The notes beneath the pieces were generated by a model that made no database searches, was not told where the DNA came from, and saw only the letters and a list, made by a program, of their open reading frames with translations. Made by a program: the position numbers and the translations under genes. Source: Alphaproteobacteria bacterium (lineage in GTDB: Bacteria; Pseudomonadota; Alphaproteobacteria; CAAHEQ01; UBA3637). Taken from it: DNA of 35,083 nt. The DNA lies in contig JAZUQR010000022.1 in NCBI GenBank assembly GCA_045605805.1, positions 1 through 35,083 on the forward strand. The letters are read 5' to 3'. Below are positions 1-33,144 of the stretch, in pieces. How positions within the stretch are numbered: the first letter of the stretch is position 1; the number at the start of each line of letters is the position of its first letter.

Positions 1-148
1 TTTTACAGGTTTATTTTTTTGAGGGTGGGGTGGTATTGCAAAAAGAGTGATTTTTGTTCATAAGAGTCTCCTTTTCTTTCAAAAGAAGCTAACATACAAA
101 AAGAAATAATGCAAGATTTTTTTTGATAAGAGAGAGGGGCAGGCTTAT

Positions 149-784
149 CTATTGACTGACCCAAACCACCCGAGCCATCCAACAAATATCTTCGGGCAAT
201 AAAGAAATCATGGCGTGTTCGGTGTTTAAGGATTTTAATTCAATTTTTTTGGCACTTTTATGGTGCAATTCCTTTACCATTACCTCACCTGTGGTCAATT
301 TGACAACGATTCGGTCGTTGATACGCACTTCCGAATCAGGTTGCACAATCAATTTATCGCCTTCACGATACACAGGTTCCATGCTGTTGCCTGAAACTTC
401 CAAAGCATAAACCCCTTTTGCCACTTGGATGGGAAACTCAATACCATCCCATTCGTCCAAAGATAAAGGATGCCCGTCTGAATCAAAAAAGCCTTCACGG
501 CCTGCCTTGGCCAGCCCTAATAAGGGGATAGTATATTTTGGGGCAGGAATAGATTGTCCGGCAAACTCCATAAACTCAAAAACAGTGGTGTTTGTGGCTT
601 TTAACACCTTATTCATACTTTCTGTGGAAGGCCACCTTTTGCGCCCATCAGCCCCGATTCGTTTTGATTTGTTAAAGCTGGTAGGGTCTAAACCGGCTTT
701 TTGGGCCAAGGCCGATAAAGAAAGTCCTTTTGCATGTGCAAGATTTTCTAAACCAACCCAGATTTCTTGATATGACAGATGCAT
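149..784 (-). CDS. LexA/CI-like transcriptional repressor (N-terminal HTH + S24 autopeptidase domain)
   Basis: N-terminal HTH-like segment (GLSLSALAQKAGLDPTSFNKSKR...RWPSTES), candidate Ala-Gly cleavage site (LAKAGREG), S24 catalytic Ser (SGNSMEP) and Lys (VMVKEL). ATG at 784 follows GAAAGGA, so it is preferred over the GTG at 799. Confidence 0.9.
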   Translation of the reverse strand: MHLSYQEIWVGLENLAHAKGLSLSALAQKAGLDPTSFNKSKRIGADGRKRWPSTESMNKVLKATNTTVFEFMEFAGQSIPAPKYTIPLLGLAKAGREGFFDSDGHPLSLDEWDGIEFPIQVAKGVYALEVSGNSMEPVYREGDKLIVQPDSEVRINDRIVVKLTTGEVMVKELHHKSAKKIELKSLNTEHAMISLLPEDICWMARVVWVSQ

Positions 785-816
785 GATAAATCCTTTCACT
801 TTTTAGTTGTGGCTAT

Positions 817-845
817 TTTATAGCATATTATTTTTGAAATGTCAA
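817..845 (-). promoter_or_regulatory. sigma70-type promoter of the repressor gene
   Basis: Minus strand reads TTGACA (845-840), 17 nt, TATAAA (822-817), with an extended -10 TG. Confidence 0.75.
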
Positions 846-861
846 TAGGATTTTTTTCTTA
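846..861. promoter_or_regulatory. putative repressor operator 1 (TAGGA-N6-TCTTA)
   Basis: Imperfect palindrome between two back-to-back -35 hexamers; a matching palindrome occurs at 1695-1710. Confidence 0.55.
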
Positions 862-869
862 TTTTACTC

Positions 870-898
870 TTGACAAAACATAAAAAATGAATTATGTT
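870..898 (+). promoter_or_regulatory. sigma70-type promoter of the 938-1712 operon
   Basis: TTGACA (870-875), 17 nt, TATGTT (893-898). Confidence 0.7.
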
Positions 899-910
899 CT
901 GGTTTTGTTC
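896..910 (+). promoter_or_regulatory. alphaproteobacterial LexA (SOS) box GTTC-N7-GTTC
   Basis: GTTC tggtttt GTTC is an exact match to the known alphaproteobacterial LexA direct repeat and overlaps the -10 element and expected start site. Confidence 0.75.
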
Positions 911-937
911 TCATATTTTTAAGGAAAGGGGGTAAAA

Positions 938-1294
938 ATGAGGAATAAATACCTATCATTTGAAGAAGGTCGGGAAGTATTGACATTTAATTCGGCCGAA
1001 GAAGCATGGTTTTGGTATTGTTTATGTGAACAAATGGAACGGCATAAAGGAAAAAAATCTGCTTCGTCTGTTGTGCGTCCGTGTGAGGCTTCGGATATCG
1101 TTATTGCGGTTAAACGATTGGCTCAAACAGGGCAATTAAAAGCCAAACATATCAAGGTGTTGTCTAAATACGGTTTTTGTCAAGTGCCGCCTCATCCTCA
1201 TTTTGGGGATAGTCTAAAAATTTGCGAATTGTGGAAAGAAGCCTTGGGCTTTTTGGGGGATATTTTGAAGAAAAAGGGAATTGTGACAGCATAA
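938..1294 (+). CDS. hypothetical protein, candidate activator/antiterminator of the virion operon
   Basis: 118 aa with a good RBS (AAGGAAAGGGGG); motifs FNSAEEAWFW, RPCE and LWKEAL...LKKKGIV. Function is inferred from context only. Confidence 0.6.
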   Translation: MRNKYLSFEEGREVLTFNSAEEAWFWYCLCEQMERHKGKKSASSVVRPCEASDIVIAVKRLAQTGQLKAKHIKVLSKYGFCQVPPHPHFGDSLKICELWKEALGFLGDILKKKGIVTA

Positions 1295-1313
1295 AAAAAA
1301 CAAAGGAAATCAA

Positions 1314-1712
1314 ATGATTAAAAGTTTTTTATCCGTAGGTTATCGGCCAGCATTTGCTTATGTCGCTTTTGGTGGAGAAGTTTCGCATTGGTGGACAAAG
1401 TTTTTGAAAAAAGGCTTTTACCATTGTTTTCTAATTTTTGGAAACGGGCGAGAATGGTATATCATTGATCCGTTGATTCATTTTACGGATTTGATAATTG
1501 TAAAAACACAAAATATAGAACATTTTTTCAAGGAAAAAGGCTATATTTTAGTGCGGACAACGCCCACTGTTCCCAATAAAATAAAACTGAGTTTGCGCCC
1601 CTGCACATGTGTGGAAACAGTGCGCCGTTTTTTGGGGGTTCAAGACAAAAAAATATGGACACCGTATCAACTTTTTTGCTTTTTAATGAAAAAAAAGGAA
1701 AATAATCCTTGA
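1314..1712 (+). CDS. putative circularly permuted papain-like (NlpC/P60-type) protein
   Basis: His motif (GFYHCFL) precedes a Cys motif (CTCVETVRRFLG) and a terminal TPYQL, the order seen in permuted papain folds; RBS AAAGGA. Confidence 0.5.
   Translation: MIKSFLSVGYRPAFAYVAFGGEVSHWWTKFLKKGFYHCFLIFGNGREWYIIDPLIHFTDLIIVKTQNIEHFFKEKGYILVRTTPTVPNKIKLSLRPCTCVETVRRFLGVQDKKIWTPYQLFCFLMKKKENNP
1695..1710. promoter_or_regulatory. putative repressor operator 2 (AAGGA-N6-TCCTT)
   Basis: Palindrome with perfect 5-bp arms, overlapping the first two bases of the -35 hexamer at 1709. Confidence 0.6.
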
Positions 1713-1737
1713 CATTTTCAAAAAAATATGCTATACT
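1709..1737 (+). promoter_or_regulatory. near-consensus sigma70 promoter upstream of the virion operon
   Basis: TTGACA (1709-1714), 17 nt, TATACT (1732-1737), with an extended -10 TG. Confidence 0.8.
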
Positions 1738-1775
1738 GTGTTCCAGTTAAAGGGGATAAGTGTATCCGATAACAA

Positions 1776-1805
1776 AAAACCACTCTCTGTGTGAGGGTGG
1801 TTTTT
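1776..1805 (+). terminator. intrinsic terminator in the leader of the portal gene
   Basis: AAAAACCACTCTC-TGTGT-GAGGGTGGTTTTT hairpin (one G-U pair) with a T run; it ends 26 nt before the portal ATG. Confidence 0.75.
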
Positions 1806-1831
1806 CTATTTACAATTGAAAGGGAGACAAA

Positions 1832-3325
1832 ATGACAGACATAACACTGTTATATAATACATATAAAAAAGCCTTAAATGAAAGAAGTTTTTGGGAAAGC
1901 ACATGGCAAGAATGCTATGAATATGCATTTCCGCAACACGAATCGGTGTTTTCAAATGTGACCAGCAAAACGAATCGCTTGTTTGACGGCACAGCACCAG
2001 ATGCGGTTGATCAGTTAGGCGCAACCATGTTGTCACAATTGACACCACCATGGACAAAGTGGTTTTCTTTAACAGCCGGTTCAGACTTGACCCAAGAAGA
2101 ACAAGCCAAAGTTGCGCCTCTTTTAGAGCAAATCACCCAAAGCCTTCAAAATAATCTGGACAGAAGTAATTTTGCCATGGAAGTGCATCAATGTTATTTG
2201 GATTTAATCACAGCTGGCACAGCTTGTTTGATGTTTGAGGAAGCACCGTATGGCTGTGGTTCTGCATTTCATTTTACGGCTATACCCTTGTCGCAACTGT
2301 GTCTTGCAGAAGGACCAACCGGACGCTTAAATCATATTTTCCGAACAATTGATTTGGATTATGACAGCTTTGTGGAAAAGTTTCCTCTGGCTCATCTGAA
2401 CAAAGAAACAGAACAAAAAGCCAAAAAAGAAAAAGTTGTTTTGCAAGTTATAGAGTGTGTCCAGCCGAATGCACATGGCACCTATGATTACACAGCCTTT
2501 TTGAATCCTGATTGCCAACAAGTCACCAATAGCGGCGAGATGGTATGCTTAAAAGAAAGCACATACGAAACCTCACCGTTTATTGCATTCCGTTGGCTGA
2601 AAGCACCAGGGGAGGTGTATGGCCGTTCTCCTGTGATGAAAGCGTTGCCGGATATTAAAACGGCAAACAAGGTGGTAGAATTGATTTTGAAAAACGCCAC
2701 CATCGCTGTGACAGGAATCTGGTTGGCCGAAGATGACGGGGTGTTAAACCCTGCCAATATCCAGCTGACCCCTGGTGCGATTATTCCAAAAGCGGTTGGC
2801 TCAAAAGGCTTGACGGCTTTGGAATCCCCAGGCAAGTTTGATGTATCACAGTTGGTGATTAAAGATTTGCGTGAACATATTCGTCATGCCTTATTGGGTG
2901 ATAAGTTGGGGCAATTGGACAGCTCTGCCAAAATGACAGCCACCGAAGTGAAGGAACGCACAGACGATATGTTGCTTGTTTTGGGGGCCACCTATGGGCG
3001 ACTTCAAACAGAATTGTTGATGCCTTTAATTGAACGGGCAACGGCTTTGTTGCGCAAAAGGGGTGAAATCCCTGATTTGTTCATTGATGGGCGTTATTTG
3101 AAAATAACCTATCAATCTGGTCGCAGTGAAAAACAAGCCGAAAAAGAAGCCGCAAACGCTTTAACATGGTTGGGTGAAATTGCAAAATTGGGTGAAAATG
3201 CCTTGGCAGAAATTGATGTACCAGCCTTTGTCAAATGGTTGGGCGAAAAATTAAACATTCCAACGGCATTGTTCAAATCAAGCGAAACAAAAGCCCCATT
3301 CATTCCACTATCACAAACACTTTAA
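1832..3325 (+). CDS. phage portal / head-to-tail connector protein, T7 gp8-like podoviral type
   Basis: 497 aa with LFDGTA, LTPPWTKWF, RWLKAPGEVYGRSP, ALPDIK and MTATEV motifs typical of podoviral connectors. Confidence 0.92.
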   Translation: MTDITLLYNTYKKALNERSFWESTWQECYEYAFPQHESVFSNVTSKTNRLFDGTAPDAVDQLGATMLSQLTPPWTKWFSLTAGSDLTQEEQAKVAPLLEQITQSLQNNLDRSNFAMEVHQCYLDLITAGTACLMFEEAPYGCGSAFHFTAIPLSQLCLAEGPTGRLNHIFRTIDLDYDSFVEKFPLAHLNKETEQKAKKEKVVLQVIECVQPNAHGTYDYTAFLNPDCQQVTNSGEMVCLKESTYETSPFIAFRWLKAPGEVYGRSPVMKALPDIKTANKVVELILKNATIAVTGIWLAEDDGVLNPANIQLTPGAIIPKAVGSKGLTALESPGKFDVSQLVIKDLREHIRHALLGDKLGQLDSSAKMTATEVKERTDDMLLVLGATYGRLQTELLMPLIERATALLRKRGEIPDLFIDGRYLKITYQSGRSEKQAEKEAANALTWLGEIAKLGENALAEIDVPAFVKWLGEKLNIPTALFKSSETKAPFIPLSQTL

Positions 3326-3338
3326 CAAGGAGAAAAAA

Positions 3339-3998
3339 ATGACACAAGAAATTGAACAAAAAGAAAACACACCCAAAGTTCCAGAAAAGTTTTTGGATGA
3401 AAATGGTGAATTAAAAACCAATGAATTGTTAAAATCATACCTGACATTAGAAAAAAAGATGTCGGAACCAAAAGCAAGCGAAAAACAAATACCAAAATCA
3501 TCTGCCGATTATCAAATCACAATCAAAAATAATCTGATAGAGGCCGACCCACAGGTGAACGAAATACTGTTTCAACATGGATTCACAAACGAACAGGCCC
3601 AAGTGGTGTATGATTTGGCCACAGACCGTATTTTACCCATGATGCAGGCCATGATGGAAGATGTGGCGGCAGACCGTGAGTTGCAAAAGTTGGAAGAAGC
3701 CTTTGGAGGTTTGGAACAATTCAACACAATTGCCCGACAAATCTCGGCATGGGCAGAAAAAAATCTGTCTCCAGAAACATTCAACGCATTGGCAAAATCA
3801 AAAGACGGCATTATGACAATGTATCAAATGATGCAGACCAATTCGGAATCTCCCTTGATTCAAGGAAAAGGCCATTTGCCCGAAAAAGATGATGAAGCCA
3901 GTTTGAAAAAATTGATGCAAAATCCAAAGTACTGGCGAGACCAAGATCCGGAGTTGTTAAAACGAGTGGAAGCCGGATTCAAACGCCTGTACGGGTAA
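3339..3998 (+). CDS. capsid assembly scaffolding protein
   Basis: Lies between portal and capsid genes; VPEKF...LLKSYLTLEKK N-terminus and C-terminal PKYWRDQDP...V...FKRLYG as in podoviral scaffolds. Confidence 0.8.
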   Translation: MTQEIEQKENTPKVPEKFLDENGELKTNELLKSYLTLEKKMSEPKASEKQIPKSSADYQITIKNNLIEADPQVNEILFQHGFTNEQAQVVYDLATDRILPMMQAMMEDVAADRELQKLEEAFGGLEQFNTIARQISAWAEKNLSPETFNALAKSKDGIMTMYQMMQTNSESPLIQGKGHLPEKDDEASLKKLMQNPKYWRDQDPELLKRVEAGFKRLYG

Positions 3999-4001
3999 AA
4001 G

Positions 4002-4063
4002 TTTTATGGACAAGTTGAAAAACCCCATAAAAATCAAAAAAGGCGAAGGAAACTTCATAACCT
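4002..4063 (+). ncRNA. putative cis-regulatory two-hairpin RNA element in the capsid leader
   Basis: TTTTATGG-ACAA-GTT-GAAA-AAC-C-CCATAAAA and AGG-C-GAAG-GAAA-CTTC-ATAA-CCT; both have GAAA tetraloops and a C/AYAA internal loop. Confidence 0.5.
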
Positions 4064-4104
4064 GAAAAAACTAAAAAAAAACAAATATAACAGAAAGGAA
4101 AAAA

Positions 4105-4959
4105 ATGACAACAAATACAAAAGGCATTGATGCCTCTTTTATTAAACATTTTGAAGCAGAAGTTCATACCGCTTATCAACAACAAGGATCTAAATTGAAA
4201 AAAACAGTTCGTTTCAAAGACGGTATCACAGGGGCCAGCACCACTTTCCAAGTGATTGGCGCCCAAAGTGCCAACCAAAAAACGGGCCGCAACGAACAAT
4301 TGACACCGTCGTCTGTCACGCATGAACCAGTGGAATGTGTTTTGTCCGATTGGTATGCCGGCCAATGGGTGGATAAATTGGATGAATTGAAAGTTGGGCA
4401 TGATGAACGCAAAGTGTTGGCCACAGCGGGAGCCTATGCATTGGGTCGTAAAACAGACGAATTGATTATTGGGGCTTTATCGGCCGCTACTCAAGAAGCA
4501 GGCGATGCCACACAAGCATTGACAAAAGAACGCATCTTAAAGGCCTTCCAAATGCTGAACACAAATAATGTGCCAGATGATGGGGAACGCTATGCATTGG
4601 TTGGGCCTGCCCAATGGAATCAATTATTGAATTTGGAAGAGTTTTCCAATGCCAACTATGTGGGCGAAGAACATCCGTTTATCGCTGGCTCTGAATCCAG
4701 AAAATGGATGGGCATCAATTGGATTATGCATACAGGCTTGCCTGCGTCGGGAGCCGAGGCTGAGGATACAACAACCTGTTTCATCTATCATAAATCCGCA
4801 GTAGGATTGGCTGCTGGTCAGGAAATTGTCACCGACATCACATGGCATGGCGATTATGCAGCCCATTATGTGAATAATATGATGAGCCAAGGGGCATGTT
4901 TAATTGACAACCAAGGTGTTGTAAAAATGGTTTGCATCAACAACGAATCCAATGCTTAA
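4105..4959 (+). CDS. major capsid protein
   Basis: 284 aa; FIKHFEAEVHTAYQQQGSKL, DKLDELK, AYALGRKTDELII and C-terminal GACLIDNQGVV resemble podoviral capsid proteins; strong RBS and a downstream terminator. Confidence 0.88.
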   Translation: MTTNTKGIDASFIKHFEAEVHTAYQQQGSKLKKTVRFKDGITGASTTFQVIGAQSANQKTGRNEQLTPSSVTHEPVECVLSDWYAGQWVDKLDELKVGHDERKVLATAGAYALGRKTDELIIGALSAATQEAGDATQALTKERILKAFQMLNTNNVPDDGERYALVGPAQWNQLLNLEEFSNANYVGEEHPFIAGSESRKWMGINWIMHTGLPASGAEAEDTTTCFIYHKSAVGLAAGQEIVTDITWHGDYAAHYVNNMMSQGACLIDNQGVVKMVCINNESNA

Positions 4960-4970
4960 ACAAAAAAACG

Positions 4971-5006
4971 AAAAGGTCCTCCTGTAAAAACAGGGGGACT
5001 TTTTTT
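4971..5006 (+). terminator. intrinsic terminator after the capsid gene
   Basis: GTCCTCCTGT-AAAA-ACAGGGGGAC stem-loop followed by TTTTTTT. Confidence 0.85.
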
Positions 5007-5026
5007 ATAACAGAAAGGAAACCAAA

Positions 5027-5596
5027 ATGACTTATACAAAAATAGATTTATGCGCACGGGCATTGGTAAAATTGGGCGCAAGCGCAATTGCCTCGTTTGA
5101 GGAAGAAACAGCCGAAGCCCAAGTATGCGCCCAACTGTATGAACCAACTTTGGAAAGCCTTTTGGCCGCCTATCCATGGCGGTTTGCATTGAAAAAGACA
5201 ACTCTTGCCCGATTGATTGACAAACCCTCTGCTGATTATCAATACGCTTTTCAAGTACCAAACGATTGCGTGCGGGTATTATCGGCCGGAAATGGTTTCA
5301 AAAGTCAAGGGATTGATTATAAAATCGTTGGCAAGACCTTGCATACAAATGCAAACAAAGTAATCATTTCATACATTTCAAAATTGGATGAATCAAACTT
5401 TCCTGTGTTTTTCTGTAATGCATTGATTGCAAAATTGGCGGCAGAAATGTGTTTGCCTTTAACAGAAAGTACAAGCCGAACGGAATATATGTATAAACGA
5501 TTTGAAGAAGAATTGAAAACGGCAAAATTGACCGACAGTCAACAAGATATTGCGCCTTGTTTTCAAGATTTTTCGTTGATTGAGGTGCGCCAATGA
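5027..5596 (+). CDS. tail tubular protein A / head-tail adaptor (T7 gp11-like)
   Basis: 189 aa; IDLCARALVKLG, YPWRFA and YQYAFQVPNDCVRV motifs; position directly after the capsid gene. Confidence 0.8.
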   Translation: MTYTKIDLCARALVKLGASAIASFEEETAEAQVCAQLYEPTLESLLAAYPWRFALKKTTLARLIDKPSADYQYAFQVPNDCVRVLSAGNGFKSQGIDYKIVGKTLHTNANKVIISYISKLDESNFPVFFCNALIAKLAAEMCLPLTESTSRTEYMYKRFEEELKTAKLTDSQQDIAPCFQDFSLIEVRQ

Positions 5597-7518
5597 CAAA
5601 TATCTTTTCAAGTAAAACTAATTTTTCTGCGGGAGAAATCTCCTCGGATTTGTTGGGGCGAGTGGATTTAAGCGCATATGCCAACGGGGCCTGTTGTTTG
5701 AAAAATGTGTTTTTGGAACCCACAGGCGGCATTCATCGGCGCAGCGGTTTGCGCTATATTGCCAACACAGGGAAAACTGGTCGCTTGATTGCCTTTGAAC
5801 AAAAAGCAGAAGAACGCTTTTTGTTTGTTATTCAAGCAGGGGAAACAAAAATCTATCAACACGATATTTTGATGCAAACCCTTGAAACACCGTGGCAGGA
5901 AAATCAATTATCCCAACTCAATTGGTGTCAAGTGTCGGACGGCATTTTAATTGTTCATCCCAAAACAAAACCATATAAAATAAAATATCAAAATGAAAGA
6001 TGGGTATTGGAGGCATTTTCATTTTTAACCGAACAAGAATGTATCCGTCAACCCTATGTCCGTTTTTGTAAGGATGAAGTGACAATGTCGTCGTCGGGGT
6101 GTGACGGTGAAGTCACTCTTACAGCAAGCAGTGATGTTTTTGAACAAAGGCATATCAATGAACAATTCAAATTGGCCTCTGGCTATGTGCAAATCAAAAG
6201 CGTGGATAGCCCAACCCAAGCCAGAGCAATCGTGAAAAAGAAATTGCTGGAAGGCGAGAATATCGGTGCCAGCACAAAGTTGGAAGCAACCCGAAGTTGG
6301 GGAGAACCCGCTTTTTGTGAGGAAAAAGGATGGCCACAAACGGTGTGTACTTATCAATCCCGTTTGGTTTTTGGGGGAAGTCCGTCATTGCCCAGCACAT
6401 TGTGGTTCAGCCAAACCGGTGATGTGACAAACTTTGAACAAGGGTCTGGTTATGATGCGCAAGCCATAGAATTCAAAATCTTGTCAAACCAATCCGACCA
6501 TATTGTAGCCCTTTTTGCGAATCGACATTTGCAGGTTTTTACCACCAGTGCAGAATGGATGGTTTCGGGCGATCCTTTAACCCCAAGCGATATTCAGTTA
6601 AAGCGTCAAACCCAAGTTGGCAGCAGGTCGGATATCTTTGTGCCACCGTTAGGGATTGATGGGGCAACCATCTTTGCGGCCATCAATGGGCGTGAAATTC
6701 GTGAGTTTTTATTTTCGGATTTGGAAGGAATGTATCAAGCAACGGATATTTCTTTGTTGGCAAGGCATTTGATTCAAACCCCCATAGATATGGCCTATGA
6801 TAAATATGAACGCCAAGCCTATATTGTGATGCAAAATGGGGCGTTGGCGGTTCTAACAAGTTTTCGGTCAGAAAATCTTCAAAGTTGGACACAACAACAA
6901 ACAAAAGGGCGTTTTTTGTCCGTCGCAATTTTGGGACAGAGGGCCTATTTTCTTATCAATCGGGATGGGCAATATATACTGGAATGTTTTGATAAAAACC
7001 TGAATACAGACAGCGGTGTGCTTGCCTTGTTTGACACAGAGCAACAAGAAATATCAGGCTTGACACATCTGGAATCAAAACAGGTGGTTTTAACATCAGA
7101 CGGTGTGGTGCTGGATAAACAAACGGTTCAAAATGGCAAATGTGATTTAAGTATTGCCGGTAAGAAAATTGAAGTCGGCTTACCCTTTGAACATCAAGTG
7201 ACACCTCTGCCACCTGTTGCCGGTGCAAGCAACGGCAATGCGTTGGTGTCCAGTTGTCGTTTGGTGCGTCTTGTCTTGCGCTTGATAGATACACAATCGT
7301 TGGAAATAGACACTGGCGCAGGCATACATCAGGAATTGGTGCCAAAGTTGTTGGACTGCCACCTCAACAAGCCAATCCTAAGCCAAACAAAAGATGTTGT
7401 GTTAAGGTGTTTAGGATGGGTCAGAACACCAACCCAGCCTTTGTGGGAAATCAAAGGGTCAAATCCGCAACCGTTTCGGTTGGTTTCTTTAACAAGTGAT
7501 ATAAAATTAGGAGGTTAA
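5593..7518 (+). CDS. tail tubular protein B / nozzle (T7 gp12-like)
   Basis: 641 aa; N-terminal NFSAGEIS..L.GRVD, GGIHRRSG, GWP...YQSRLVFGG and WFSQTGD motifs of podoviral nozzle proteins; ATGA overlap with the adaptor gene. Confidence 0.82.
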   Translation: MTNIFSSKTNFSAGEISSDLLGRVDLSAYANGACCLKNVFLEPTGGIHRRSGLRYIANTGKTGRLIAFEQKAEERFLFVIQAGETKIYQHDILMQTLETPWQENQLSQLNWCQVSDGILIVHPKTKPYKIKYQNERWVLEAFSFLTEQECIRQPYVRFCKDEVTMSSSGCDGEVTLTASSDVFEQRHINEQFKLASGYVQIKSVDSPTQARAIVKKKLLEGENIGASTKLEATRSWGEPAFCEEKGWPQTVCTYQSRLVFGGSPSLPSTLWFSQTGDVTNFEQGSGYDAQAIEFKILSNQSDHIVALFANRHLQVFTTSAEWMVSGDPLTPSDIQLKRQTQVGSRSDIFVPPLGIDGATIFAAINGREIREFLFSDLEGMYQATDISLLARHLIQTPIDMAYDKYERQAYIVMQNGALAVLTSFRSENLQSWTQQQTKGRFLSVAILGQRAYFLINRDGQYILECFDKNLNTDSGVLALFDTEQQEISGLTHLESKQVVLTSDGVVLDKQTVQNGKCDLSIAGKKIEVGLPFEHQVTPLPPVAGASNGNALVSSCRLVRLVLRLIDTQSLEIDTGAGIHQELVPKLLDCHLNKPILSQTKDVVLRCLGWVRTPTQPLWEIKGSNPQPFRLVSLTSDIKLGG

Positions 7519-7519
7519 A

Positions 7520-8014
7520 ATGGGCGCAACAACAGCCGCAGTTGTGACAGTTGCAGCCGTTTTGGGGTCAGCTTATTTTCAGCATGAACAAATTCAAGCA
7601 GAAAAAAAAGCCACGAAACGAGCAAATGCATTGGCACACGAACAAAATAAAATAGAACAGGAAAATCAACAGGCAATTTTGCAAGAAGAATTGCGTAAAA
7701 ATAGAAATCTTTTGGCTCAGCAACAATCAGCCTATAAAGCTAAATTGGGAGCCAGCGGACTCAGCACCACATCCGGTTCAGGTCAAGTGGTTTTGGATAC
7801 CATGCAAAAAGAAGCGGATATGGAAGAAAAATACTTAAAACAGCAAAATGATTATACATTGAAGCGGTTAAACACAAACCTGAAACAAACAAATAACAGA
7901 AATTTGCTGAATTTAGAAAAGTTGAAATTGAATACGCAAGGAAATCTGTTTAATGCCACAGTACAATCCATCAAAACCGGTGCAGGCAGCAATCAATCTG
8001 CTCAGATAAAATAA
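7520..8014 (+). CDS. putative small internal virion (ejection) protein
   Basis: Hydrophobic Ala/Val N-terminus, Q-rich helical region and GASG...SGS motif; position after the nozzle as for T7 gp14-like proteins. Confidence 0.55.
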   Translation: MGATTAAVVTVAAVLGSAYFQHEQIQAEKKATKRANALAHEQNKIEQENQQAILQEELRKNRNLLAQQQSAYKAKLGASGLSTTSGSGQVVLDTMQKEADMEEKYLKQQNDYTLKRLNTNLKQTNNRNLLNLEKLKLNTQGNLFNATVQSIKTGAGSNQSAQIK

Positions 8015-8024
8015 AGGAGAAAAA

Positions 8025-8306
8025 ATGCCCGATAAAGAAAATAATTTATCCGAGGCATGGTCTGATGATTTAGAAAGTGCGCTGAACGATTACCATGCGT
8101 TTCGTACGCAAGAAACACCGTTGGAAGCCAAAGATTTTACCGCCTATCATAACGCCTGTAAAGCCGTTTTGGCCCACATTTTAATGATAAAAAAAATGAT
8201 GAACCCAATGACCCAGCAAAATCCTGAAACGGATTTTTTGAATTTATTGGAACAAGCACGAAAGGCAAACCATGAAGAAAATGATGAAAACGATTCCTTT
8301 GATTGA
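8025..8306 (+). CDS. hypothetical protein, candidate terminase small subunit
   Basis: 93 aa, helical-looking, RBS AAGGAG, overlaps the start of the large terminase; assigned by position only. Confidence 0.5.
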   Translation: MPDKENNLSEAWSDDLESALNDYHAFRTQETPLEAKDFTAYHNACKAVLAHILMIKKMMNPMTQQNPETDFLNLLEQARKANHEENDENDSFD

Positions 8307-9699
8307 TTTTGTCTGGATTTGGAATCATCAACTGAATCTGAATCTGCCTCGTCATCACAAAGCCATTTGTCGTTTTTTGGAACGCATTTGGAACCATGAT
8401 AAACGGGGATTGTTGATGGCGTTTCGGGCTTGTGGTAAATCCACATTGGTGGGACTTTTTTGTGTATGGTTGTTGCGCCATAATCCGGAATTACAGATTT
8501 TGATTGTGTCGGCTGATCATTCGTTGGCAAAAAAAATGACACAACATATCAAACGGATTGTGGAATTGCATCCGTTGTGTAAAGATATGAAACCATTGCA
8601 TCCGGAAGAATGGGCATCTGATTGTCTGTCGGTTCAAAGGCAAAGCACGGGCCGTGATCCGTCTGTATTAGCCCGAGGATTGAACGCCAATTTAACAGGC
8701 TGTCGGGCGGATGTGATTATTTGTGATGATGTGGAAGTGCCAAAAACATGTGACACAGGTCCAAAACGCCAAGAGCTGAAACGCAAATTGGAAGAACTGG
8801 AATATGTTTTAACACCCAAAGGGGCTTTAATCTATATCGGCACGCCTCATACACAAGATACTCTGTATAATACGCAGGATGGATTTTTGAAAAATTGGCC
8901 ACTTTTACGCATTCCTATTTTGAATCAAAAAGGGGAATCTAATTGGCCGGAAAAATATCCTGTGGATAAAATTATGTTGATGAAAAGCCGAACGGGAAAA
9001 ACAAAGTTTCAAAGCCAAATGATGTTAAAAGCCGTCAAGCCAAACGAAGCCCGATTGGATGTCAGGCGTTTGCTGTTCTATACAGACGAGCTGAATTATC
9101 ACGAAGCCAACGATTCGGCCACCTTAAAAATCGGCAATATACCCATGGTATCTGTGTCGTGTTGGTGGGATCCGGCCTTTGGTTCGGCCAAAGGCGATCA
9201 CAGTGTGGTGGCCTGCGTTTTTTCTGATGCCAATGGTCATTATTATTTGCATCGTGTGAAAATGTTAAAAGTGCCACCACAAACCGAAGCTGCCGGCTAT
9301 CAGTGTCGGGAAGTGGTCAATTTTATTCGGGAAAATCATTTGCCGGCCATCCATTTGGAAACAAATGGGATTGGCAAGTTTTTGCCCGCCCTGTTGCGTC
9401 AGGAATTGAACCGAGCAAAATTGGGCTGTGCTGTGATAGAAGAAATTGCCCGTACACGCAAGCAAAACAGGATTTTATCTGCCTTTGAGGTGCCACTTAT
9501 GAATGGCGCATTATCTGTGCATACAAGCGTCAAAAAAACAACTTTTGTGGATGAATTACAGGATTTTAATCCCTTTGCCCCAAAAGGACATGACGATGTG
9601 CTGGATTCTGTGGCAGGCTGTTTGTTGGCCGAACCTGTTCGCTTGAAACGCAATGCCTTTGTGCGCTTAAATCGCCCCAAATGGCAAGGAAATTATTAA
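8272..9699 (+). CDS. terminase large subunit (T7 gp19-like)
   Basis: Walker A AFRACGKST, Walker B VIICDDVE, coupling motif IGTP, nuclease acidic residues in WDPA and HDDVLD. The start could be 8272, 8281 or 8284. Confidence 0.92.
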   Translation: MKKMMKTIPLIDFVWIWNHQLNLNLPRHHKAICRFLERIWNHDKRGLLMAFRACGKSTLVGLFCVWLLRHNPELQILIVSADHSLAKKMTQHIKRIVELHPLCKDMKPLHPEEWASDCLSVQRQSTGRDPSVLARGLNANLTGCRADVIICDDVEVPKTCDTGPKRQELKRKLEELEYVLTPKGALIYIGTPHTQDTLYNTQDGFLKNWPLLRIPILNQKGESNWPEKYPVDKIMLMKSRTGKTKFQSQMMLKAVKPNEARLDVRRLLFYTDELNYHEANDSATLKIGNIPMVSVSCWWDPAFGSAKGDHSVVACVFSDANGHYYLHRVKMLKVPPQTEAAGYQCREVVNFIRENHLPAIHLETNGIGKFLPALLRQELNRAKLGCAVIEEIARTRKQNRILSAFEVPLMNGALSVHTSVKKTTFVDELQDFNPFAPKGHDDVLDSVAGCLLAEPVRLKRNAFVRLNRPKWQGNY

Positions 9700-9718
9700 A
9701 AAAAGAAAGGATAAAACG

Positions 9719-10126
9719 ATGACAGAATTAGAGATTTTTGCAAAAACTGTTTTTGGTGAAGCCCGTGGCGAAAAATTGTCTGGCATGGAAGCGGTGGCTA
9801 ATGTCATCCTCAATCGTGTCAAACATGCCCAAAGAATTGGCAGCTATTGGTGGGGCAAAACAATTGAAGAAGTATGCTTGAAACCATTTCAATTTTCGTG
9901 TTGGAATAAAAATGATGTCAATTTTGCACTTTTACAACAAGATTTGAAAGACAATAAAGTGTATCAAATCTGTGAAAGAATTGCCAAACGGGCGTTAGCT
10001 GGCTTTTTGCCGGATAACACCAAAGGGGCCACGCATTACCATGCAGATTCAATAAATCCTTCGTGGGCAAGATGTGCCGTTCCATGCGCCCAAATTGGCC
10101 GTCATGTGTTTTATGCTTTGTATTGA
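9719..10126 (+). CDS. cell wall hydrolase, SleB/Hydrolase_2 family (putative endolysin)
   Basis: GEARGE (catalytic Glu), VANVILNRV, QFSCWN, GATHYHA and IGRHVFY. Confidence 0.9.
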   Translation: MTELEIFAKTVFGEARGEKLSGMEAVANVILNRVKHAQRIGSYWWGKTIEEVCLKPFQFSCWNKNDVNFALLQQDLKDNKVYQICERIAKRALAGFLPDNTKGATHYHADSINPSWARCAVPCAQIGRHVFYALY

Positions 10127-10137
10127 AAGGAAAAAAA

Positions 10138-10449
10138 ATGCCAAGTCAAAATCTTACAATGGAAACCGGCAAGTTGATGGCAACGGTGTCCAACCTACAA
10201 AATGAACTCGGCCATATCAAAAAAGAAATGCATACATTGAATAATCAAGTGATGAAAGTGCATGATGATTTGATTGGTTTTATGGGCACAGTTCAAACAA
10301 AAGGCAGTTGTGAACATATCCAACGGATTTTGAAATCAGACTATGTCCAACGCAGTGAATTGGCCCCCTTCAAAGCAATTTTGGGGGCTGTTTCTTTAAC
10401 AACGGTCACAGCCATCACTGTGGCCATCTTAAACCTTATTTTGAAATGA
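10138..10449 (+). CDS. coiled-coil protein with C-terminal transmembrane helix (putative lysis accessory protein)
   Basis: ATG 10138 follows GAAAGGA; heptad-like N-terminal half and hydrophobic C-terminus (ILGAVSLTTVTAITVAILNLIL). Confidence 0.55.
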   Translation: MPSQNLTMETGKLMATVSNLQNELGHIKKEMHTLNNQVMKVHDDLIGFMGTVQTKGSCEHIQRILKSDYVQRSELAPFKAILGAVSLTTVTAITVAILNLILK

Positions 10450-10646
10450 AAGGAAAGAAAATGATTCAATTTATTATGACTTATTTTAATGATATTTTGG
10501 GTGCCATTACATCCATTATTGCTGGGGCCAGTGCCTTATCAGCCATCACGCCAACAACAAAAGACGATACCGTTTTGAAAAAAGTGAAAAACTGTTTAGA
10601 TATAGTGGCCCTAAATATAGGCAATGCCAAAACGGCAACAGCCTAA
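10446..10646 (+). CDS. small holin-like membrane protein
   Basis: One hydrophobic helix followed by TPTTKDD..L.K...LDIVALN, a pattern seen in small phage membrane proteins; starts possible at 10446 and 10461. Confidence 0.55.
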   Translation: MKGKKMIQFIMTYFNDILGAITSIIAGASALSAITPTTKDDTVLKKVKNCLDIVALNIGNAKTATA

Positions 10647-11137
10647 ACAAGTGACCGGCGGCGGGCTTTTTTCGGGCCAAAAGTGTGCCAAGATTCTCCT
10701 TCATCAAGTAAAAGCACAACCCCGTCTGCCGGTTGTAATTTATACACAGGTTCGGATTGGGAAATATAAGAAATAAACTCGGTCAACCCTGGTAATTCGC
10801 CCACAATCATCACACAAAATAAAATGTCGTCCAGCTTATGAATCATCTCTAAAATCCGATAATCCGGTGCATCATATAACGAATCTTTGTACAGAATATC
10901 CGATTTTCCCAAAACTTCGTCCAACAAATCCAAAGTTTGATGCACATACAAAGTTGGCGAACATAAAATTAAATCAGGCATTAAAATGGGATTTTCTTTT
11001 AATTCTTCCAACAAAGTTAAAACATCGTTGATGCCCTTTTTGGAAAGTGGTCGTTTTAATTCATTCAAAACGGGTGCTGTTTCATCAGGCGACCCAGCCG
11101 CCACAACATAAAGAATCCTATTTTTCTGTTGATGCAT
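10643..11137 (-). CDS. SixA-like histidine phosphatase fold protein with substituted catalytic residues
   Basis: RPLSKKG, PDLILCSP...QT, LYDA and MIVG.P match SixA, but the RH motif reads AA and GHxP reads GELP. ATG 11137 has RBS AAGGGGAG. Confidence 0.65.
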   Translation of the reverse strand: MHQQKNRILYVVAAGSPDETAPVLNELKRPLSKKGINDVLTLLEELKENPILMPDLILCSPTLYVHQTLDLLDEVLGKSDILYKDSLYDAPDYRILEMIHKLDDILFCVMIVGELPGLTEFISYISQSEPVYKLQPADGVVLLLDEGESWHTFGPKKARRRSLV

Positions 11138-11194
11138 AAAATCTCCCCTTGTATTGTTCAAAAGATATAGGAAGATTTTGTCAAAATTGCAATC

Positions 11195-11452
11195 TTATTG
11201 AACGATGTGCGTGTTTTTTTGTGAATCCGCAAGCTGTTCCTGAGTCACCGCATTTATTGGCAACTCTTGCAAACGATTTTGTCCCGTAATAATCCGCCAA
11301 CTTTCAGAAAAGAAATAGGCTGTTTTCGTAATGCTTGTTTGCGGCTTGATACCCCAAATGGCCCACAGCAAAGTAAAACCAATTCCTGTCAACACGATGG
11401 TGTTGATAATAAGGTTCAAAGTAAACTTTATACACTTTAATAATTTTTCCAT
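11195..11452 (-). CDS. small hypothetical membrane protein
   Basis: 85 aa from ATG 11452 with one TM segment (LIINTIVLTGIGFTLLWAIWGI). Confidence 0.55.
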   Translation of the reverse strand: MEKLLKCIKFTLNLIINTIVLTGIGFTLLWAIWGIKPQTSITKTAYFFSESWRIITGQNRLQELPINAVTQEQLADSQKNTHIVQ

Positions 11453-11502
11453 TGAAAAAAACCTCTCTTTTATTATATACTTTTTAACAAAAGAGAAGAA
11501 AA

Positions 11503-12177
11503 ATGTCAAGCGAAGAAATAATTAAAATTGAAGAATATGAAGTGCATCTTGTCAAAAGCAAGCGGGCAAGGTCGGTTTTTTTGAAGCAAAACTTAAAAGG
11601 GCAAATTGTTTTAGTCTGTCCTACTCTGTGTCATAAACTGGTGGCCATTACCTTTGCTGAAACACAAATAGAATGGATAAAAGCTCATATTGAAAACGGG
11701 CCAAAAGAACACAGATTCCAACCCAATGATGAGGTGATGATATTGGGTAAAGTCTATACATTAAAAAGAGGTAAAAGAACAGAAGTTTTGAAAAATGAAT
11801 GGATGATATCGGGCGAAGAAAGGTTTTTTCACAGGCGGGTATGTTCGTTGGCGCAAAAGCAATTGCTCAGCCATATCCAAAACAAAGTAAAAGAATTGAC
11901 GCAAGTTTTGCAAGTGAAAGTGAAACGCATTACTTTGCGTAATACCTCATCCCGATGGGGCAGTTGTTCGTCCGAGAAAAATCTCAGTTTTTGCTGGAAA
12001 ATTGCCTTTGCGCCCATGGAAGTGATAGACTATCTTGTGGCGCATGAGGTGGCCCATCTGGTTCAAATGAACCACAGCCAAAAGTTTTGGAAATTGGTGG
12101 ATACATTGACAAATCATCGGGAATATGCCGAAAAATGGTTAAAGGAAAACGGCCGTTTCTTGCAAAGCATCCAATAA
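11503..12177 (+). CDS. YgjP/DUF45-like zinc metalloprotein (often annotated M48/SprT family)
   Basis: SRWGSCS, IDYLVAHEVAHL (HExxH) and MNHSQKFW. Confidence 0.88.
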   Translation: MSSEEIIKIEEYEVHLVKSKRARSVFLKQNLKGQIVLVCPTLCHKLVAITFAETQIEWIKAHIENGPKEHRFQPNDEVMILGKVYTLKRGKRTEVLKNEWMISGEERFFHRRVCSLAQKQLLSHIQNKVKELTQVLQVKVKRITLRNTSSRWGSCSSEKNLSFCWKIAFAPMEVIDYLVAHEVAHLVQMNHSQKFWKLVDTLTNHREYAEKWLKENGRFLQSIQ

Positions 12178-12219
12178 AAATACATAAAATATCATTTCTT
12201 GCTTGCTTTTTATGAAAAG

Positions 12220-12234
12220 TTAATATATGGTTAA
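12220..12234. promoter_or_regulatory. CtrA binding box TTAA-N7-TTAA upstream of ctrA
   Basis: TTAA tatatgg TTAA, 17 nt upstream of the ctrA start codon. Confidence 0.7.
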
Positions 12235-12251
12235 AGAAAAAGGAGGCAATC

Positions 12252-12935
12252 GTGCATATTTTGTTGATAGAAGATGATAAAGCAATGAACCAAACAATTT
12301 CCACTTTGTTAAAGCGTTCAGGGATGACGGTGGAATCTGCGTTGAAAGCCAAAGAGGGGTTGGAACTTCTTAAAATATATGAATATGACTTGATTATCTT
12401 GGACTTGATGTTGCCGGATATGACAGGGGCAGATGTCCTGCGCAGTGTGCGTGCCTTGAATATAGCCACCCCCGTTTTGGTGCTGTCTGCCATTGAATTG
12501 GCCCAAAAGAAAGTGGAATGTCTGGCCCTGGGCGCAGACGATTATGTGAATAAACCTTTTAATGGTGAAGAATTAATTGCTCGGGTCAATGCTATTGTGC
12601 GGCGCAGCAAGGGTCATGCCGAAGCGGTGGTCAAAGTTGGAAAAATGTCCATTGACCTGAATACAAAAGTCGTCACAGTGGCGGATAAAATCTTGCCTTT
12701 AACAGGAAAAGAATATGCGCTGATTGAATTGTTGGCGTTAAAAAAAGGTTCAACGGTAAGTAAAGAACAATTTTTGAATCATCTGTATAATGGCATGGAT
12801 GAACCGGAAGTAAAAATCATAGATGTGTTTTTCTGTAAAATAAGGTCAAAAATTAAAGAATTGTCTGATGGGGAAGATTATATCACAACCGTTTGGGGGC
12901 GGGGTTATATTCTTCAAGAATCTCCACTGAACTAA
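12252..12935 (+). CDS. ctrA: cell cycle response regulator CtrA
   Basis: Asp51 in YDLIILDLMLPD; AIVRRSKGHA, LTGKEY, FLNHLYNGMDEPEVKIIDVF and TVWGRGY are CtrA-specific. Confidence 0.92.
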   Translation: MHILLIEDDKAMNQTISTLLKRSGMTVESALKAKEGLELLKIYEYDLIILDLMLPDMTGADVLRSVRALNIATPVLVLSAIELAQKKVECLALGADDYVNKPFNGEELIARVNAIVRRSKGHAEAVVKVGKMSIDLNTKVVTVADKILPLTGKEYALIELLALKKGSTVSKEQFLNHLYNGMDEPEVKIIDVFFCKIRSKIKELSDGEDYITTVWGRGYILQESPLN

Positions 12936-12942
12936 AATCCAC

Positions 12943-12975
12943 AAAAAAAAGACCCCGAGAAATCGGGGCTTTTTT
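12943..12975. terminator. bidirectional intrinsic terminator between ctrA and rpmG
   Basis: A run, CCCCGA-GAAA-TCGGGG hairpin, T run, between convergent genes. Confidence 0.85.
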
Positions 12976-12992
12976 GTGAAAGGAAAACCAAA

Positions 12993-13163
12993 TTATTTAA
13001 TTGGTTTTTCTGTAAACTCAACATGCTTACGAGCCTTGCGGTCGTATTTGCGCACTTTCATCTTTTCAGTATGTGTTTTTGGGTTCTTTTTTGTAATGTA
13101 AAAATACCCAGTACCTTCTGTACTGACAAGACGAATTTCATTTTTAACAGTCTTTTTTGCCAT
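12993..13163 (-). CDS. rpmG: 50S ribosomal protein L33 (absent from the ORF track)
   Basis: Manual translation: [56 protein letters not shown]. Confidence 0.95.
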
Positions 13164-13223
13164 AGTTATTGCCTTTGCTTGAAGTTAAAACTGGCGTTAT
13201 TCTAACCTTTTTTTTTGTGCTTG

Positions 13224-13700
13224 TCAAGAAGATTTTTTGTTTTTCAAAACTTTCTTTACCCACAAAGCCAGATGTTGTGTCAACAAAGCACGGTGAACAG
13301 GGGATTTAAGTTTCACTAAATAAGGGGCAAAAGCAATTTGATAGGCTTCATGTTTCGTTAAACAATCCGATACCCGATTTTGTAAATAATGTTGCCAGCT
13401 GTCCCCGCTTAAAAGGGCAATTTTTTTGCGTCCGTCCGCTAAAATAGCCACCCTTTTTAATAAAACGGATAAGGCTTTTAAGTAAGGGATATCATCTGGA
13501 TAAAGGGTATCAAAATCGTTGATTTTGCGAATCGCATACCTATCTGGCCGATTGTGCCACATCCGATAAAGAAAAATGCCCAACAAAAAAATAAGCAAAA
13601 TAAGCCCAAACAAAATCCACCAACCATAGGCAAGGGGCCAAAAATCCGGCTTATCCATCAAGTGAATATCTCGCAATCCGGATAAATCAATCTCACCCAT
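13224..13700 (-). CDS. DUF4381-like membrane protein of the MoxR operon
   Basis: LRDIHL...FWPLAYGWW, TM helix, LLKRVA and LSGDSW; located after DUF58. Confidence 0.8.
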   Translation of the reverse strand: MGEIDLSGLRDIHLMDKPDFWPLAYGWWILFGLILLIFLLGIFLYRMWHNRPDRYAIRKINDFDTLYPDDIPYLKALSVLLKRVAILADGRKKIALLSGDSWQHYLQNRVSDCLTKHEAYQIAFAPYLVKLKSPVHRALLTQHLALWVKKVLKNKKSS

Positions 13701-14604
13701 GAACGCCCCCTTTCCCAAAGCAAAAACGAATCAGTTCATTCAAATAATCCGAATCGGTTGGAATGGGTAAATAGCCCCAACCGTATTTTTGGGCCGCCTT
13801 TTGAATGACAGCCTGTTGATTTTGCCATTGTGCATGAAACTTTTGACGCATCTTGTCATTCAAAGCCGATACAACTAAATTGGATTTTCCGTCTGAAAAA
13901 GGCAGAGTATCTTGTGGTAAATTGGCCTCTAATTGATCATAGATAGAACAAAATAAAAAAGTATTTTTTTCGCTGAAACGGGATAAAAGCACAAGGTGCT
14001 GATCGGTCAAGTCGTGAAAATCGCTGAAAAAAAACAAAAAAGAACCAGCCGGAATCATCTGCCCCAATAAGCGCATAGCCTTATCCAATCCGCCCGCAGT
14101 GGCCTTAAATTTGTCAGGATTGGCCATCTGATTCAATAAAGGCATTAAAGCATTGGTATCACAATCACCACTTGTTAAAAGACCGTTATCAGTCAGCAAA
14201 AGAGAACCGATTTTGTCATGTTGATGTTCGGCAATAAAAGCCATAAAAGCCGTCAATCTGGCCGCAATCACAGCCTTAAAAGCGCCATGCGTGGCAAAGA
14301 ACATAGAAGGGCGCAAATCCACAACAAAAAAAACAGTGCGTTCTTTTTCTTCTGTGTATAGTTTTGTAAAGGGTTTACCATATTTGGCAGTCACATGCCA
14401 GTCAATCTGCCGAATATCATCCCCAGGTTGATACACCCGCACCTCTTGGAAATCAAGGCCTCTGGACTTAAAGGGGGAAAAAGTGTTTCCCGAACCAGTG
14501 AAAGACTTTTTGCCGGTTTCAGGCAACAAAAACAAATCAGCTTTTTTGCGTAAAGCCACCAAATCTTTCAAAAGAATCTGTGTGGGATGAAAATGGGCCG
14601 TCAC
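13693..14604 (-). CDS. DUF58 (VWA-related) protein
   Basis: GLDFQEVRVYQPGDDIRQIDWHVTA, VDLRPSM and FSDF. Confidence 0.9.
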   Translation of the reverse strand: MTAHFHPTQILLKDLVALRKKADLFLLPETGKKSFTGSGNTFSPFKSRGLDFQEVRVYQPGDDIRQIDWHVTAKYGKPFTKLYTEEKERTVFFVVDLRPSMFFATHGAFKAVIAARLTAFMAFIAEHQHDKIGSLLLTDNGLLTSGDCDTNALMPLLNQMANPDKFKATAGGLDKAMRLLGQMIPAGSFLFFFSDFHDLTDQHLVLLSRFSEKNTFLFCSIYDQLEANLPQDTLPFSDGKSNLVVSALNDKMRQKFHAQWQNQQAVIQKAAQKYGWGYLPIPTDSDYLNELIRFCFGKGGVHG

Positions 14605-14614
14605 TTGTGCCTCC

Positions 14615-15939: not shown

Positions 15940-15956
15940 GGGCTTTCTGTCACAAA

Positions 15957-15985: not shown

Positions 15986-15992
15986 GATTAGC

Positions 15993-33129: not shown

Positions 33130-33144
33130 TTCTTTTCTCCGTAT

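Follow-up and report, generated by a model that had tools for sequence, protein, structure and literature searches.

Does RNA polymerase that starts in front of a chromosomal set of virion genes reach those genes unaided, or must it first be modified? The question is raised by a locus in the window, that is, the whole stretch of 35,083 nucleotides that was analyzed, which corresponds to contig C22 of a genome of 1.21 Mb with 98.85% completeness. The named relatives of its proteins are from alphaproteobacterial MAGs, and its virion genes are of the T7 or short-tailed type by Pfam and PHROG matches.

1832..10646, + strand: virion operon for portal, scaffold, major capsid, two tail tube proteins, internal protein, terminase and endolysin, with small genes (Pfam, PHROG)

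As in gene transfer agents (GTAs), the particle genes are conserved and single copy (the portal gene in each of 20 further genomes of the genus) and accessory genes are unlinked, since the main particle cluster has no fibre gene and a tail-fibre gene lies elsewhere in 28 genomes. An earlier note on this DNA had proposed that a short RNA is made here by default and that the virion genes need an antiterminator, with ORF938 as the candidate. We consider it likely that Q-type antitermination gates a domesticated short-tailed particle together with a probable toxin cargo. Three elements that the earlier note had missed, an operator, a LexA box and a regulon, are part of this proposal.

The late promoter and its operator

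Direct reading of the window gives TTGACA at 1709-1714, a 17-bp spacer, TG at 1729-1730 and TATACT at 1732-1737, which confirms the near-consensus promoter previously placed upstream of the portal gene. With a score of 11/12 it is tied for best among the 53 promoter-like sites in positions 1-18000, and it is the only 11/12 site with a TG in that interval. The TGA within its -35 TTGACA is the stop codon of ORF1314.

1709..1737, + strand: σ70 promoter TTGACA-17-TGn-TATACT, start predicted at 1745
1695..1710, no strand: operator-like palindrome, core GGAA-N4-ATCC at 1697-1708, adjoining the -35 box (column conservation)
1821..1826, + strand: ribosome binding site of the portal gene (read from the sequence)

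All 53 family genomes that bear the cluster, which span 10 genera, were read in the region 3' of ORF1314, duplicate loci L023 and L060 being excluded. These genomes are kin, so that the counts below are not independent trials. TTGAC and the 17-bp spacer are present in 53/53 and the TG in 52/53 of these late promoters; the final T of the -10 box is missing in 9/53, and the majority of alphaproteobacterial promoters are described as lacking this T at -7 (PMC8407463). The earlier expectation of a start near 1744 holds for the neighborhood, and A1745 is the more likely base because an A occupies that position in 43 of the 53 relatives. As the portal ATG is at 1832, the predicted leader has 87 nt. 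A CtrA half-site, TTAA at +3, was dropped as a candidate element, since its A at +6 occurs in just 32/53.

The sequence GGAA-N4-(A/T)TCC lies directly at the -35 box in 52 of the 53 loci, and apart from a variable center the operator columns are kept in 52-53 of them. RogA of Caulobacter, an HTH-S24 protein, binds GGAA-N4-TTCC (PMC9632790); the operator in the window matches this site at 7 of 8 positions, with a T at the mismatched position in 13/53 loci. The operator center is near -42 relative to the late promoter start, where a CI-like protein could alternatively activate transcription, but repression is the more likely role because the site overlaps a consensus -35 box.

Terminators in the leader and past the capsid gene

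A full intrinsic terminator had been reported between this promoter and the portal gene, and it stands.

1774..1808, + strand: intrinsic terminator, A tract 1774-1779, stem 1780-1800, T run 1801-1805 (fold and script)
4976..5006, + strand: second strong terminator, between the capsid and tail genes (-22.9 kcal/mol, 0/200 shuffles as good)

The T run of the first terminator ends 26 nt 5' of the portal ATG, and positions 1770-1810 fold at -18.1 kcal/mol (z -5.5), with none of 200 shuffles as good. Its U tract is broken here, with CUA after five U, which may allow a degree of constitutive read-through. A consensus terminator scan missed this terminator, which we ascribe to pairing of the A tract with the U tract, and a stricter script detects it.

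By script a hairpin plus U tract ends by +75 in 52/53 family leaders and is visible by eye in the 53rd, compared with 2/53 upstream control windows and 11/265 shuffles; in the same genome, 2 of 16 other near-consensus promoters are followed by a weak hairpin. (A loose terminator finder also flagged 4/6 chance sites.) The order of regulator gene, promoter, terminator and late genes is likewise found in 52/53 loci by script and in the 53rd by eye. Stem sequences are wholly different between clades, so what is kept is the pairing.

These comparisons bear on two other readings of the leader. The earlier note had allowed that the hairpin ends the upstream operon, and that an activator-dependent promoter uses the TACAAT present at 1811-1816. 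With TAnAAT within 25 nt past the stem in just 2/53 leaders, TACAAT at the same offset in 1/53 and an invariant promoter upstream, this can be given very little credence. It is also conceivable, if quite improbable, that the 60-nt RNA is itself the product, as a small RNA, or that the leader is a riboswitch-type attenuator. A unit with its own promoter and terminator would suit this reading, as would the pairing of the 5' end with post-terminator sequence in several genera, but that helix needs sequence made after read-through and is weak here (rank 42/51). Moreover, Rfam gave no family at cut-off, no antiterminator pairing was found (the leader's own 5' part beat those from other genera in 18/48 and 22/48 for the two stem arms), and an ATG occurs in just 13/53 leaders, which argues against a conserved leader peptide.

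The pairing itself joins the leader 5' end (1744-1759) to 1805-1818, just past the terminator. It is weak in the window (-3.5 kcal/mol) and clearer in L036, L038, L055 and L057, with matching changes between genera: own sequences gave -13.1 versus -6.5 kcal/mol in genus g3 and -14.2 versus -6.4 kcal/mol in g25, and the pairing is absent in g5. The helix could form only after read-through, and its role may be that of a protective 5' stem or of a site for RNase III.

A conserved leader motif and a predicted pause

Between promoter and terminator lies a short conserved sequence.

1748..1767, + strand: conserved leader motif, TA at +4/+5, GG at 1753-1754, then TGT|A; it spans the weak hairpin at 1754-1767

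The motif was found 50-52 bases past the start of the -35 box in all 53 family leaders, with a search pattern that fixed some columns and left the position free over about 8 bases. It reads GG-N8-Y|R, with the bar at the pause, over the whole GC range, and this form fits the consensus G-11/G-10, Y-1, G+1 of the elemental pause, the signal that sets the pause where the Q proteins of lambda and phage 82 load (PMC5001585). The pause signal consists of several parts, as is confirmed by PMC6336406, which prints no sequence. In the window G1753, G1754, T1763 and A1764 fit the strict signal, and a pause is therefore predicted at 1763 (+19).

A strict pause score, restricted to the positions named in PMC5001585 at offset 51-54 from the -35 box and defined post hoc, after the motif was noticed, finds this form in 19/53 portal leaders (at most 6 at other offsets), 45/51 accessory leaders (at most 9), 37/43 IMG/VR leaders (at most 8) and 23/73 distant promoters (at most 5), and in 2/52 family ORF938 promoters, which served as a control. 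A looser form is unspecific (40/53 versus 37 in another window), and a separate six-position score includes two positions beyond those named in PMC5001585. At the portal, G-10 is present in only 20/53 leaders and the +1 base is A, not G, in 50/53. Bases past the predicted pause are likewise conserved, and the motif may thus serve as a binding site too. It persists over a range of about 40% to >70% GC, and its TA is missing in GC-rich lineages.

At lambda's register the strict NANNNT pause hexamer is not kept across the 53 leaders (T in 51, A in 44, last base G in 39 and T in 2); the reported lack of a -7 T in alphaproteobacterial promoters may excuse the missing T (PMC8407463). NANNNT at +14 to +19 had been a candidate for a σ pause hexamer, as it held in 22/22 of the first loci, and was given up when it failed in other genera and GC-rich lineages.

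The small hairpin GGATA-AGTG-TATCC at 1754-1767, to which the earlier note had drawn attention, is present and overlaps the conserved pause-like sequence, but it is weak (-4.4 kcal/mol), and as a conserved structure at the portal it was rejected, with just 8/53 leaders at or below -4 kcal/mol. Copies of the cassette in front of accessory genes have a strong early hairpin at the pause motif in 41/47 cases.

Q21, AlpA and GafZ are reported to bind in the promoter spacer (PMC7969949, PMC6606751, PMC11150451). No conserved binding element was found in the 99 family spacers compared, which share only AT richness and TRTG, and the spacers of GC-rich late promoters look unrelated.

ORF938, a candidate antiterminator

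The gene proposed earlier for the antiterminator lies two genes upstream of the portal gene, and its predicted fold supports that role.

938..1294, + strand: ORF938, 118 aa, unnamed family, candidate Q21/AlpA-like antiterminator (predicted fold)

The Q21 fold has an N-terminal helix, a flexible ring loop and a σ4-like helix-turn-helix. In the ORF938 model (pLDDT 86) a helix is followed by a flexible loop of 15 residues and then by three helices. Compared with 48,161 chains it matches Q21 first (Z 6.2, rmsd 4.1, 89 residues aligned, residues 16-114), followed by a σL chain (Z 5.6) and AlpA (Z 5.5), all under the tool's bar of Z 8. The model of an Azospirillum homologue, 34% identical to ORF938, also matches Q21 first (Z 6.3, rmsd 4.0, 89 aligned) and then AlpA (Z 5.9), again under Z 8, with all other chains at Z 4.8 or less. 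Q21 is aligned along almost the entire chain in both models, AlpA ranking third for ORF938 and second for the homologue; the two models are not independent, because the second was built on a largely shared alignment. In an atlas comparison the fold reached TM 0.56 to a Q cluster, below the atlas naming bar, and Foldseek returned nothing at E 0.001 for ORF938-type models in PDB or viral models, the highest probability (0.35, in one non-significant search) being that of Q21 chains. With Z under 8 and Foldseek not significant, the Q21/AlpA-like fold is a consistent lead, not proof.

By sequence ORF938 is unlike known Q proteins. It has no Pfam, PHROG or NCBIfam match and no PDB sequence match at E 10, tblastn gave no match in annotated phages, and 0 of 133 family members match a Q family in Pfam (including Phage_antitermQ) or PHROGs. 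As this sequence test and the hexamer test both fail, ORF938 is not to be filed in a Q family; AlpA has the Q21 fold without sequence similarity (PMC9371919). There are 331 ORF938 relatives at the 50% cluster level, and a relative is encoded at 494 of 546 pattern matches in GTDB genomes.

The fold comparison also admits a different division of labor, in which read-through is regulated but ORF938 is a σ4-like activator or something else, and antitermination is the work of a host or unlinked factor or of an RNA-binding protein that recognizes the leader motif. Chains of σ region 4 come within 1 Z of Q21 for the ORF938 model (Z 4.5-5.6), the spacer element was not found, and the leader motif exceeds a minimal pause signal and lies inside a hairpin in accessory leaders. 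However, the alignments of Q21 and AlpA take in the N-terminal helix, from residue 16-19 of ORF938, while those of most σ chains start only at residue 28-49; with the second model, Z 5 is reached by Q21 and AlpA alone; a consensus promoter scarcely needs an activator; and no fixed RNA fold is kept, because the pairing register of the hairpin varies. We regard such a division of labor as unlikely, and ORF938 is retained as the candidate antiterminator.

In the flap-tip helix of RpoB (L231:2725-3054) all family RpoBs seen have Thr in place of the usual Ala. This residue does not track ORF938, as it also occurs in genera without the cluster (L216, L219).

Predicted control upstream of ORF938

The region 5' of the virion operon contains a divergent pair of promoters, with predicted sites for two repressors.

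149..799, - strand: HTH-S24 repressor gene, RogA/CI-like architecture (Pfam S24 E 9e-21; PHROG repressor E 5e-28)
817..845, - strand: predicted repressor promoter TTGACA-17-TATAAA (sequence reading; matrix scan)
846..861, no strand: operator-like imperfect palindrome between the divergent promoters (similar site in most family and distant loci)
870..898, + strand: predicted ORF938-ORF1314 promoter TTGACA-17-TATGTT (10/12)
896..910, no strand: LexA box GTTC-N7-GTTC, overlying the ORF938 promoter at its -10 box and start (sequence match)
1314..1712, + strand: ORF1314, 132 aa, stop codon inside the -35 box of the late promoter (no family)

It is likely that the HTH-S24 protein binds the operator-like sites. 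Its catalytic Ser and Lys align with those of the LexA encoded in the same genome (a weak alignment, E 0.001), so this repressor may cleave itself after DNA damage. GTTC-N7-GTTC is the LexA consensus in Caulobacter (PMC12907096), and the exact box is present in 41/52 family ORF938 promoters and in none of the late cassettes. Of 80 family genomes, the 53 with the particle cluster are also those with relatives of ORF938 and of ORF1314; for ORF1314 there is a weak lead to an NlpC/P60-like fold.

Two further observations concern regulation. A gene at 12252-12935, 1.6 kb past the cluster, encodes a CtrA-like response regulator (310 bits with NCBIfam, against a cut-off of 350); in Rhodobacter the GTA is under CtrA control. 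Elsewhere in the genome, at C26:39446 on the + strand (locus L148), an operator accompanies an extended -10 box with a weak -35 box and a different leader, and this site may be bound by the repressor without belonging to the read-through regulon.

Copies of the cassette mark a regulon

The combined operator-promoter pattern occurs four times in this genome: at the portal gene, at a T7-type tail-fibre gene and at two MuF genes.

G000 C25:2588 (L147:1122-2602), - strand: cassette copy before a T7-type tail-fibre gene (334 aa, Pfam E 5e-6) and a gene of 101 aa
G000 C2:1554 (L145), - strand: cassette copy before the gene of a MuF protein, 283 aa with a lysozyme-like part
G000 C23:2344 (L146), - strand: cassette copy before the gene of a MuF protein, 143 aa, C-terminal part without family

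A matrix trained on relatives gives scores of 85, 66 and 50 for the portal, tail-fibre and C2 copies, where shuffled sequence reaches at most 6; the low score of the C23 copy is due to its 16-bp spacer. Among 80 family genomes the pattern is present in 54, comprising 53/53 with the cluster and 1/27 without it, and the reversed pattern gave one match in all. In G043, which has the cluster, and in the lone genome without it, the match is a chance site that has no -10 box.

The 57 non-portal copies that were read (three in this genome and, with two at contig ends set aside, 54 of the 56 in relatives) include 51 with a -10 box and 6 without. They lie before T7-type tail-fibre genes in 29 cases (28 genomes), before MuF genes in 3, at a contig edge in 1 and before other genes in 18. 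Scanning 17 of these 18 genes gave five lysozyme/pesticin-like products (weak matches), four Tlde1-like, two dual-OB, one each of GH108, peptidoglycan-binding and serum-amyloid-A-like type, and three without family. Accessory copies mostly have the early hairpin followed by a U run, and often a second terminator.

The presence of one cassette before unlinked fibre, MuF, lysozyme-like and Tlde1-like genes indicates that it marks a regulon. From this shared regulation and the MuF literature (PMC5576092) we infer that these proteins are particle cargo, and the MuF, lysozyme-like and Tlde1-like products are predicted cell-wall toxins and a probable antibacterial cargo. The unlinked copies and the conserved order also support the earlier proposal that the default product would be a short RNA and that the virion genes would need an antiterminator.

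The copies also bear on an account without any dedicated antiterminator, in which the operator alone does the switching, and the terminator acts as a leaky attenuator and at the same time as the end of the ORF938-ORF1314 transcript. The overlap of the operator with a near-consensus promoter suits this account, the hairpin would indeed end the upstream transcript, the U tract is broken in this genus, and the terminator past the capsid gene could set protein ratios through leakage, as terminators do in T7. However, accessory copies keep the same order, often with two hairpins, and the gene upstream of the C2 copy is divergent, so that its terminator has no upstream operon to end and can only stop its own promoter. 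Repression alone would in addition leave the pause-like motif without a role over its whole GC range, and would not explain the fold of ORF938 or its strict co-occurrence with the cluster. We consider it unlikely, and the regulon is discussed below as one controlled by read-through.

Three small hydrophobic ORFs lie after the MuF gene of C23 and could encode immunity proteins. In genus g5 (L162, L164) a cassette copy precedes a 57-aa hydrophobic gene without Pfam family, possibly a holin.

The cassette in distant lineages

Among IMG/VR loci a CTTGAC promoter stands at the place of the late promoter in 46 of 77 examined, up to 76% GC, and of these 46 the leader motif is present in 45 and the terminator in 28 by a strict script. 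The 80 named GTDB loci share this gene order, and no cassette or promoter was found in them 3' of ORF1314 or ORF938 (74 and 79 loci examined); of the GTDB loci, only L061 and L062, two class-level loci added to these, have the cassette.

In the distant loci the operator, the LexA box and the pause motif are instead found at the promoter of the ORF938 homologue (LexA box in 62/73 such promoters of L063-L142). In these loci, which include Micavibrio-labelled MAGs, Azospirillum, Inquilinus and others, the genes from the ORF938 homologue to the portal look like one operon, so the regulator may boost its own operon. Terminators lie within the operon between scaffold and capsid genes in 37/48 and after the capsid gene in 26/40, and the gaps around these distant capsid genes often hold inserted genes, maybe with promoters of their own. 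The pause motif thus appears to accompany whichever promoter drives the virion genes, as expected of a loading site.

A gene of ~60-80 codons ending in an LLG motif lies between leader and portal in L046-L059 and most distant loci, and is missing in this genus and four others.

Relation to known systems

The earlier note had likened the control to that of lambda Q and Caulobacter GafZ. Antitermination of that kind is retained, and the closer models are Q of phage 21 and AlpA of Pseudomonas, not GafZ.

The lambdoid pR'-pause-tR' region, including that of phage 21, has the same succession of regulator, promoter, pause, terminator and virion genes (10.1101/651190; PMC6606751; PMC5001585), and the TA and GG of the leader motif stand at the same distance from the predicted pause as the hexamer and G run of lambda (PMC5001585). 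The locus differs in having no T at the sixth hexamer position and an operator that overlaps the late promoter, and in being chromosomal and single copy, with several unlinked targets and T7-type structural genes; the predicted fold of ORF938 is closest to that of Q21, whereas sequence similarity and a spacer element were not found.

AlpR-AlpA of Pseudomonas aeruginosa is likewise chromosomal, with a DNA-damage-linked repressor, a Q21-like antiterminator and more than one operon (PMC7969949; PMC9371919), and terminators of AlpA targets begin at +54 and +26 (PMC7969949). AlpA depends on a spacer element together with a NANNNT hexamer, and its targets are lysis genes (PMC7969949), whereas here a full particle set would be the target and LexA is also implicated.

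The Caulobacter GTA shares the HTH-S24 repressor with a GGAA-N4-TTCC-type site, antitermination of the particle operon, as proposed here, and unlinked accessory genes (PMC9632790; PMC11150451). Its promoter, in contrast, has a weak -35 box and needs GafY and IHF, where TTGAC is present here in 53/53; its terminator consists of three 150-bp repeats after the first gene, not a simple hairpin before it; and GafZ has one target, not several (PMC11150451). RogA lacks the S24 catalytic residues, whereas the repressor described here keeps Ser and Lys, by the weak LexA alignment (PMC9632790).

BrrG of the Bartonella BaGTA, compared by description, is a Q21-like protein of an alphaproteobacterium with a near-consensus TTGACA-17 promoter and a leader terminator before the capsid genes, but it needs NANNNT 5 bp past the promoter and has an 864-bp leader, against 87 nt here (10.1101/2024.11.20.624540). 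Also by description, the FpGTA of Faecalibacterium resembles the particle in its ~10.5-kb head and packaging operon, its probable short-tailed type and a tail fibre in a second locus; its host is a Firmicute, and no comparable regulation was found in the passages covered (PMC12946183). MuF polymorphic toxins combine a MuF domain with a variable C-terminal part and have been proposed to travel in phage heads; those are described as products of temperate phages, with toxins in Firmicutes, whereas the putative toxins here are scattered chromosomal genes, each with a cassette copy (PMC5576092).

A proposed two-lock switch for a possibly toxin-armed particle

The most likely mechanism, by analogy, is an antitermination switch that acts on a promoter-pause-terminator cassette like those of Q21, AlpA and BrrG. 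It probably has two locks, namely repression of ORF938 and the late promoters, followed by ORF938-dependent read-through. At rest, the HTH-S24 repressor would occupy the operator and LexA would silence ORF938, and any RNA begun at 1745 would stop after about 60 nt. DNA damage would lift both repressors. RNA polymerase would then pause at about +19, where ORF938 would load and, in the manner of Q21 and AlpA, keep the hairpin from folding in the RNA exit channel, and the modified polymerase would pass both the leader terminator and the terminator after the capsid gene. The same read-through at the accessory copies would let head, tail, fibre and probable antibacterial cargo be made together.

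A more tentative proposal, which we hold to be possible rather than probable, is that ORF938 represents a new nozzle-type antiterminator family (~500 places in GTDB genomes), loaded at an elemental pause without a spacer element, that runs a DNA-damage regulon of scattered genes for a domesticated T7-like particle with interchangeable cell-wall toxins, be it a host-owned capsid weapon or a toxin-armed GTA.

Antitermination control of domesticated particles is already known (PMC11150451; 10.1101/2024.11.20.624540; PMC7969949; 10.1101/651190; PMC6606751); what appears to be new is the family of ORF938, together with the compact form of the cassette and a regulon of scattered fibre and probable toxin genes. 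No account of this system was found in the largely open-access literature covered. ORF938 would enlarge the small set of known Q-like antiterminators by a new sequence family, and it provides a testable switch, in the form of one small gene, for a widespread and uncharacterized particle system: its expression should induce particles in culturable carriers such as Azospirillum or Inquilinus. The cassette also serves as a search key, as it finds the fibre missing from the cluster and ties MuF, lysozyme-like and Tlde1-like genes to the particle; if the proposal is true, the missing parts of a toxin-armed particle can be found in this way. The linked cargo raises the question of whether the particles move genes, kill competitors, or both.

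Another feature of the window

Positions 32001-34500 of the window have a GC content of 0.52-0.54, compared with about 0.41 elsewhere, and were possibly acquired; they carry an alanine-racemase-like gene and an α-L-fucosidase gene.
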